The notes below the pieces were generated by a model. That model was not told where the DNA came from and did not search any database. It worked only from the letters and a program-made list of their open reading frames with translations. The position numbers and the translations under genes are program-made. Below, one piece after another: positions 4,866 to 5,312 of a DNA stretch of 64,000 nt (within the stretch, counting starts at the first letter, position 1; each line of letters begins with the position of its first letter). This DNA is from Escherichia coli (GTDB lineage Bacteria; Pseudomonadota; Gammaproteobacteria; Enterobacterales; Enterobacteriaceae), in the NCBI RefSeq assembly GCF_001677475.2, contig NZ_CP015229.1; one strand, given 5' to 3'.

Positions 4866-5174
4866 TCACTTCAACATGGATGAGAAAAGAACAATACCCG
4901 GGATAATTGCCCTTGTTGCGCTCATTTTCTCTTCCAGATCCAGCTTCCGCTGATACAGCGTGTTCTCGTCGGATAAATTGCTGGCATCGAGTTTCCCCGC
5001 GATAGATATTCTTCGCAGGCGATCAGTGTTAGGTATCGCGATTAACACTTCCAGATAGTCAGAAAGTAACCCAATGATTTCAGGTGGCACTTCCCCATTA
5101 TCCAGATCCATATCACGTAAATTAGCCAGATATGACACATTCAGCGGGTATATATGACCAAGTAAATTATTCAA
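4866..5174 (-). CDS. Hypothetical protein (102 aa); 5' end runs into the putative prophage left end, true start may be internal
   Basis: ORF track; N-terminal codons overlap the region I assign to the Mu-type prophage terminus. Confidence 0.3.
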
Positions 5175-5312
5175 GATAACCGGGAAGAGATTAAAAAAGA
5201 CGGGAACAGATTGGAATCAATAGGTTAGAAACTACCGATATTCAAGATAAAACGGGTTAAAAATGCTCAATACGTCAATATCGATAAAACATTCAAGATA
5301 GGCGCGCCGTGT
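5138..5312. repeat. Direct repeats with ATTCA(A)GATA core at prophage left end; candidate transposase-binding sites (L1-L3-like)
   Basis: ATTCAGCGGG near 5138, ATTCAAGATAACCGGG near 5169, ATTCAAGATAAAACGGG near 5240, ATTCAAGATAGGCGCG near 5301; similar to the TTCACGATAAATGCG motif inside the right end. Confidence 0.4.

Follow-up and report, generated by a model that had tools for sequence, protein, structure and literature searches.

Direct repeats as candidate transposase-binding sites at the left end of a Mu-like prophage of Escherichia coli

A Mu-like prophage of Escherichia coli (contig NZ_CP015229.1, of which a stretch of 64,000 nucleotides, here called the window, was analysed) carries short direct repeats at its left end, and the locus raises the question of whether these repeats are the sites read by the prophage's own transposase and where exactly the element begins. 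A first-pass annotation had proposed four related motifs as candidate transposase-binding sites, likened them to a right-end motif and considered the terminus uncertain. The early region next to the repeats is organized as follows (coordinates are those of the window):

5401–5916, minus strand: repressor (c-like) gene, unrelated in sequence to the Mu repressor
6108–6359, plus strand: ner-like gene (HTH_35)
6361–8457, plus strand: transposase A, 698 aa, 23% identity to MuA
6703–6945, plus strand: codons ~115–195 of A, the segment that co-varies with site type (identity tables, AF2 model, fold matches)
8533–9486, plus strand: gene for a MuB-like AAA+ transposition protein

Pfam matches of this region comprise Mu-transpos_C, HTH_Tnp_Mu_1, rve and Phage-MuB_C, and together with fold matches to 4FCY and 1TNS they place a Mu-family DDE transposase and a MuB-like ATPase beside the left end. 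The transposase belongs to the Sp18/vB_YpM_5/SuMu-like branch and is not MuA proper, its whole-protein identity being 82% to vB_YpM_5/6, 76% to Sp18-like Mu-like phages inserted in Stx phages and 55–57% to Tongde and Kp4866-3.

The repeats themselves consist of three exact direct copies of the 10-mer ATTCAAGATA on the plus strand. They are situated past the 3′ end of the repressor gene, where Mu has L1–L3, and the coordinates bear out the annotation in this respect. A scan of the 64-kb window for at least three identical, non-overlapping 10-mers within 150 bp returned this trio as its sole cluster, while 50 shuffles yielded none. The left end is laid out as follows:

1–5152, no strand assigned: left flank, P1-like (IncY) phage-plasmid DNA, identity ending at 5152
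5153–5168, plus strand: prophage left terminus, 5′-TATGACCAAGTAAATT, beginning TA, not TG
5169–5178, plus strand: L1 core ATTCAAGATA, element nt 17–26, exact copy, 27.2 bits
5179–5222, plus strand: conserved L1–L2 spacer block, ACCGGGAAGAGATT..GACGGGA..GATTGGAATCAA
5240–5249, plus strand: L2 core ATTCAAGATA, element nt 88–97, 18.1 bits, the lowest of the three
5291–5300, plus strand: L3 core ATTCAAGATA, element nt 139–148, 24.8 bits

The terminus, which the annotation had been unable to fix, maps to position 5153. Positions 1–5152 share 99.1% identity with pNADC1036IncYphage over 5152 bp, and uninterrupted IncY phage-plasmids, the kind of empty site that had been suggested for defining the junction, match the left flank at 99–100% up to 5152, with the prophage following from 5153. 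A P1 gene at 4866–5152 (minus strand) is cut off by the insertion, and the same P1 junction is present in at least four other assemblies (L075–L078). Furthermore, 12 independent left junctions with unrelated flanks all start with TATGAC, or with TATTAC in Salmonella, and the base preceding this sequence varies among them; the element therefore begins with TA at 5153. These junctions were drawn from complete E. coli genomes (STEC346, STEC388, VL40 and RM9088), from IMG/VR (L012 and L014) and from drafts of Shigella (L068) and Salmonella (L067), and they also include two other insertions of the window's same phage (L073 and L074). In a prophage remnant in E. coli FDAARGOS_943, which lies in narI of the narZ operon, homology likewise begins at 5152/5153. 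A TG terminus at 5155 was rejected because all junctions retain the TA that precedes it. Placing the boundary here reduces the four annotated motifs to three: the first, at ~5139 and presumably ATTCAGCGGG at 5139–5148 (the annotated range began at 5138), belongs to the flanking P1-like plasmid DNA and lies outside the prophage.

A position weight matrix (PWM) built from 25 unique site contexts of cognate ends describes the sites as a TTCAAGATA core, fully informative at 2 bits per position, preceded at positions −5 to −1 by a weaker A-rich element, which at L1 occupies 5164–5168. The A-rich element is found in all site classes but L2, and at L2 VL40 and S. flexneri have TTTCAAGATA. In Mu, L2 is a weak site, and the L2 described here is possibly a weak site as well. 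Scored with the same matrix, the look-alike ATCGATAAAA at ~5277 falls below 0 and was discarded. In 5153–5400 there is no match to the Mu consensus YMYNWRAARYRCGAAAR (taken from the D108 annotation, GQ357916) with up to two mismatches allowed, and the possibility that the repeats are variants of the Mu consensus was rejected because this end lacks any such match. At 38599–38608 (minus strand), 1.6 kb short of the right end, the tail-fibre assembly gene contains a lone copy with one mismatch, TTTCAAGATA; a single isolated match of this kind is no more than chance would be expected to produce.

The same arrangement recurs in relatives of the prophage, which were located via the transposase protein; a blastn search of the phage collection with the left end gave no match. 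Two pattern scans of IMG/VR returned true ends at 2 of 12 and 5 of 33 loci, the rest being mostly unrelated coding tandem repeats. The three 10-mers of left ends in the lineage begin at element nt 17, 88 and 139/140, so that in the window the sites lie at nt 17, 88 and 139, within less than ~200 bp of a defined terminus. Eleven cognate right ends of relatives, including that of L085, have the 10-mer three times in inverted orientation, at nt 17, 39 and 74 counted inward, and read ...TATCTTGAAT(N25)TATCTTGAAA(N12)TATCTTGAATAATTTTGCGCGCTTTA; the window's own right end carries none. The offset of L1 from the terminus (nt 17) is the same as that of R1 in the cognate right ends. Examples of such right ends are those of STEC346 in yhfX, of VL40 in the 5′ end of a vgrG and of RM9088 in nrfA (L083), as well as L048 on one contig with the left end L014 and L079 in one assembly with L073. 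The truncated or rearranged prophages of FDAARGOS_943 and STEC388 were excluded from this comparison.

These ends bear the traces of transposition. Six pairs of left and right ends are flanked by 4-bp target site duplications (TSDs; ATTC, TTCA, GATA, TGAA, TAAG and TATA), a single copy of TTCA restores the vgrG reading frame in VL40, and the same phage, with a 100% identical A protein, is found at three different sites. A 5-bp TSD was rejected because the fifth base never matches. The termini of the lineage read 5′-TA...TA-3′ (in relatives at L024:1047 and ~36290, L028:3001, L030:~5823 and L033:280), those of Sp18-like elements TG...TA. Across four diverged lineages 29 of 30 motif columns are invariant, as against 10 of 41 in the L2–L3 spacer (nt 98–138) and 18 of 102 past L3 (nt 149–250). 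In L047 the spacing of the right-end sites is kept while the spacer sequence is unrelated.

The core is known in two versions, ATTCAAGATA and ATTTGATAC, and the comparison of transposases carrying one or the other points to the part of A that may read it. The A protein of vB_YpM_5, of ATTTGATAC type, is 94–98% identical to that of the window in the bulk of the segments within aa 201–650, and 40–66% identical over aa 51–200, with 40% at aa 1–50 and 46% at aa 141–205. Among A proteins of CAAGATA type, identity to the window falls to 17–44% at aa 1–50 and amounts to 82–100% at aa 141–205 and 79–99% at aa 206–300. Between the CAAGATA and ATTTGATAC groups, aa 141–205 are 37–54% identical; aa 206–300 of the window protein are 98% identical to YpM5 and DEC12A, and the catalytic core is ~98% identical between ATTCAAGATA- and ATTTGATAC-type transposases. 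A pair of Salmonella elements repeats the swap, L067 having CAAGATA sites and L070 TTGATAC sites with the rest of the N-terminal 300 aa close. Because segment identities split by site type in this way, site type co-varies with A aa ~115–195. An AlphaFold model of aa 1–300 (mean pLDDT 78) comprises a winged-helix domain (aa 1–73), a disordered linker and two helical domains (aa 95–205 and 220–290), and its best PDB matches, all with weak E-values, are 4FCY (the Mu transpososome), 1TNS (MuA I-alpha) and 2EZK/2EZL (MuA I-beta). The model is consistent with, though no proof of, the co-varying segment being the equivalent of I-beta, as the fold matches carry no residue ranges. We infer that aa ~115–195 are the part of A that recognises the sites and that they lie within a helical, I-beta-like domain (aa 95–205).

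Taken together, the position relative to the terminus, the inverted copies at the other end, the invariant cores and the co-variation with the transposase strongly support the ATTCAAGATA repeats as the L1–L3 candidate transposase-binding sites of this lineage, with binding itself predicted from sequence; the annotation's central proposal is thereby upheld on comparative grounds. In the proposed mechanism, A protomers would bind the sites through the I-beta-like helical domain (aa ~95–205), with specificity residing in the segment ~115–195, although the assignment of domains to the bases they contact is itself predicted. By analogy with Mu, L1, 16 nt inside the terminus, would place the catalytic core at the end, and L2 and L3 would build the transpososome with the equivalent R1–R3, after which the 5′-TA...TA-3′ ends would be joined to target DNA with a 4-bp stagger. 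The best explanation of the whole, to which we assign a probability of about 0.88, is that the repeats are L1, L2 and L3 of an attL read by the I-beta-like domain of A and that the cognate attR has been replaced.

Two other functions for the repeats have to be weighed against this reading. They might bind the prophage repressor or the enhancer-binding N-terminal domain of A, a notion invited by the report that Mu Rep binds Mu ends and by the repeats adjoining the repressor gene. What makes it very improbable is the behaviour of the immunity module, since aa 1–50 of A (6361–6510) co-vary with the repressor/operator region (5401–6107) and not with the end sites: aa 1–50 are 44% identical to the window in STEC346 and 82% in FDAARGOS_943, and STEC346, STEC388 and RM9088, with other repressors, 17–44% identity in this segment and c–ner DNA that cannot be aligned to that of the window, nonetheless have identical ATTCAAGATA sites. 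The end sites are thus independent of the immunity module, and YpM5 provides the converse case, agreeing with STEC346 in the first 50 aa of A and in repressor type, yet having ATTTGATAC sites. Slightly less probable again is that the repeats are pac or host-factor (IHF, HU, Fis) sites and not transposase sites. The left end of Mu does have pac and an HU site between L1 and L2, but the end sites are also independent of the late and packaging module: type-a and type-b prophages share late genes while their ends differ, and the prophages of STEC1575 and STEC346 combine near-identical late and terminase genes and identical Mom and Com proteins with wholly different end repeats, STEC1575 having a MuA/D108-type early region with Mu-type ends and STEC346 a window-type early region with ATTCAAGATA ends. 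Moreover, the repeats recur in inverted orientation at the right end, a place where no pac site would be expected, and a separate block conserved with Mu (5179–5222) is the better fit to pac/HU. This spacer block is common to type-b relatives, YpM5, Tongde, Kp4866-3 and Mu (nt ~28–70) and absent from the Salmonella L067 element. It follows the shared late genes and not the transposase and is therefore a candidate pac/HU region, which, from what is known of Mu, we take not to be a transposase site. The HU site of Mu is mentioned in PMC3820752.

The right end of the window prophage presents a different picture:

40133–40204, minus strand: Mu-type attR, terminus ...CTTCA ending at 40204
40133–40149, plus strand: R3, Mu consensus match
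40156–40172, minus strand: R2, Mu consensus match, with TTCACGATAAATGCG at 40160–40174
40178–40194, minus strand: R1, Mu consensus match
40205–45400, plus strand: right flank, E. coli chromosome, ansP–vgrG–rhs region

R1, R2 and R3 match the Mu consensus with 0–1 mismatch, all of them within 40133–40194 only. No cognate TATCTTGAAT site is present at this end; the cognate PWM picks out only Mu R2 (TTTCACGATAA, 10.2 bits) and finds no scoring site at the R1-equivalent position. The resemblance that the first-pass annotation had seen between the left-end repeats and a right-end motif is accordingly real as far as TTCACGATAAATGCG (40160–40174, minus strand) is concerned, but the motif is Mu R2 and not a cognate copy. 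L082 and L086 have a Mu-type attR of identical sequence, and only this heterologous right end finishes in CA. The prophage, spanning 5153–40204, thus has ends in different transposase specificity classes, and its flanks come from different replicons, the left being P1-like plasmid and the right chromosome. On the chromosomal side the Mu-type end breaks a 176-aa hypothetical gene, of which a 133-aa remnant is left at 40208–40609, and the empty site reads ...GAACA/GCGATGACC. The remnant lies just upstream of a vgrG/DcrB-like/Rhs (PAAR-RHS toxin) cluster at 41184–48415; the vgrG whose first codons harbour the type-b prophage of VL40 is a different one.

Single-nucleotide alleles trace the mixed ends to two prophages. 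The first 5.2–8.3 kb of the window prophage show 100% identity with both the P1-borne copy and the one at the mtl site, while from 39034 to the end (the last 1.2 kb) all 8 of 8 alleles are those of the Mu-type-attR prophage L086 and none are those of type-b. With type-b alleles on the left and L086-like alleles on the right, the window prophage combines a type-b prophage carried on P1 with a Mu-type prophage from the chromosome. This hybrid was produced by real recombination or by a mis-join, and the crossover falls between ~13.5 kb and 39.0 kb, in the shared late genes. The attL is intact, and the cognate attR would have given way to that of a second Mu-like prophage sharing late genes, either by recombination or by an assembly join. 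The P1 insertion is known elsewhere with its cognate right end and the TSD TATA (L085, ...GCGCGCTTTA/TATACCGCTCG), the right junction of this intact P1-borne prophage being ...CTTTA/TATACCGCTCG; the left-flank junction of an intact chromosomal type-a prophage would read ...GAACAGCGAT/TGTATTG..., and at least 16 contigs from other assemblies contain the chromosomal Mu-type junction. STEC346 (NZ_CP091044.1; L024 and L034) holds a type-b prophage (ATTCAAGATA ends, in yhfX) and a type-a prophage (MuA-type, Mu ends) in one strain, with closely similar late regions, which shows the co-residence that the proposed recombination needs.

How the two halves came together is less settled than what the repeats are. 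A hybrid that is functional, in which A pairs the ATTCAAGATA left end with the Mu-type right end and the flanks result from replicative transposition (a cointegrate), would likewise leave one old and one new flank, and Mu R2 does contain TTCACGATAA, a 9/10 match to the core at 10.2 bits (P ~0.016 per 200-nt stretch). We consider it very unlikely, since all six both-end pairs of the lineage have cognate ends, the R1-equivalent position beside the terminus is vacant, the P1 insertion carries a cognate right end in L085, the last 1.2 kb bear the alleles of L086 and none of the P1-borne phage, and the Mu-type attR is paired with a MuA-type transposase in STEC1575 and STEC346. A more serious contender, though still the lesser one, is that the mismatched ends are an assembly artefact, in which two intact prophages (type-b on the plasmid, type-a in the chromosome) were joined across ~25–30 kb of near-identical late genes. 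All four junctions expected of two intact prophages are present in related draft assemblies, divergence between the late regions close to the right end is only ~0.5%, and searches of complete E. coli genomes and PLSDB plasmids turned up neither window junction. Both window junctions do occur in GCA_002516285.1 (L077 and L092), but reciprocal recombination leaves the same four junctions, so that drafts cannot discriminate; P1-like DNA has been reported in some complete chromosomes (13 places), and long near-identical repeats are good substrates for real RecA recombination. On balance we lean slightly towards a genuine RecA-type event that merged a P1-like replicon with the chromosome. In either case the ATTCAAGATA sites are authentic, and the window copy, having no cognate partner end, is probably immobile.

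Literature searches found no published description of ATTCAAGATA- or ATTTGATAC-type sites, and papers on Sp18-like and vB_YpM_5-like phages do not discuss the ends; the repeats are an expected feature in a sequence variant not described before. A broader reading, to which we give even odds, is that they exemplify a natural modular specificity in Mu-like prophages of E. coli, Shigella and Salmonella, in which an I-beta-like cassette of ~80 aa and the ~10-bp cores of six end sites 35 kb apart swap together, the window being a mismatched hybrid locked in place with a P1-like plasmid fused to the chromosome. The exact ends and the recognition motif now allow precise boundary annotation of a common, uncharacterised Mu-like lineage of these three genera. 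Near-identical catalytic cores with different end specificities, the difference being mapped to ~80 residues, bear on the way in which Mu-family transposases recognise their ends and on the engineering of orthogonal mini-Mu systems. Furthermore, where Mu-like prophages with late genes in common reside together, replicon fusions and immobile hybrids can arise or seem to arise.

Compared with known systems, the sites would act like those of Mu attL without being MuA sites. The lineage shares with Mu and D108 three sites per end within ~150–170 bp of the termini, an L1 near the terminus with a long spacer to L2–L3, closely packed R sites and an N-terminal multi-domain DNA-binding region whose separate first domain, which binds the enhancer/operator, co-varies with immunity as it does between Mu and D108; the conserved L1–L2 spacer block is shared with Mu. 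It differs from Mu in the site sequence, with a core of ~10 bp and a weak A-rich element as opposed to 22 bp, in the start of L1 at nt 17, in cognate R sites that all have one orientation whereas Mu R3 is inverted, in a transposase with only the low identity to MuA given above, and in TA...TA termini with a 4-bp TSD in place of TG...CA with 5 bp. Features specific to MuA elements, namely a consensus match at the left end and TG...CA termini with a 5-bp TSD, are absent from the lineage. Closer are the Sp18-like STEC prophages (LC727895 and LC727881), the Yersinia phages vB_YpM_5/6, Tongde and Klebsiella Kp4866-3, which have a transposase of the same family (55–82% identity). This group also has three sites per end, the first at nt 17 at both ends, and similar terminal 16 nt; the annotated TSD of LC727895 is likewise 4 bp (AGAG), and vB_YpM_5 has the same ...GCGCGCTTTA right terminus. 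It differs in its core, ATTTGATAC versus ATTCAAGATA, and in A aa ~115–195. A functional analogue from another family is Tn7, where repeated sites for the transposase TnsB are arrayed asymmetrically at the two ends.
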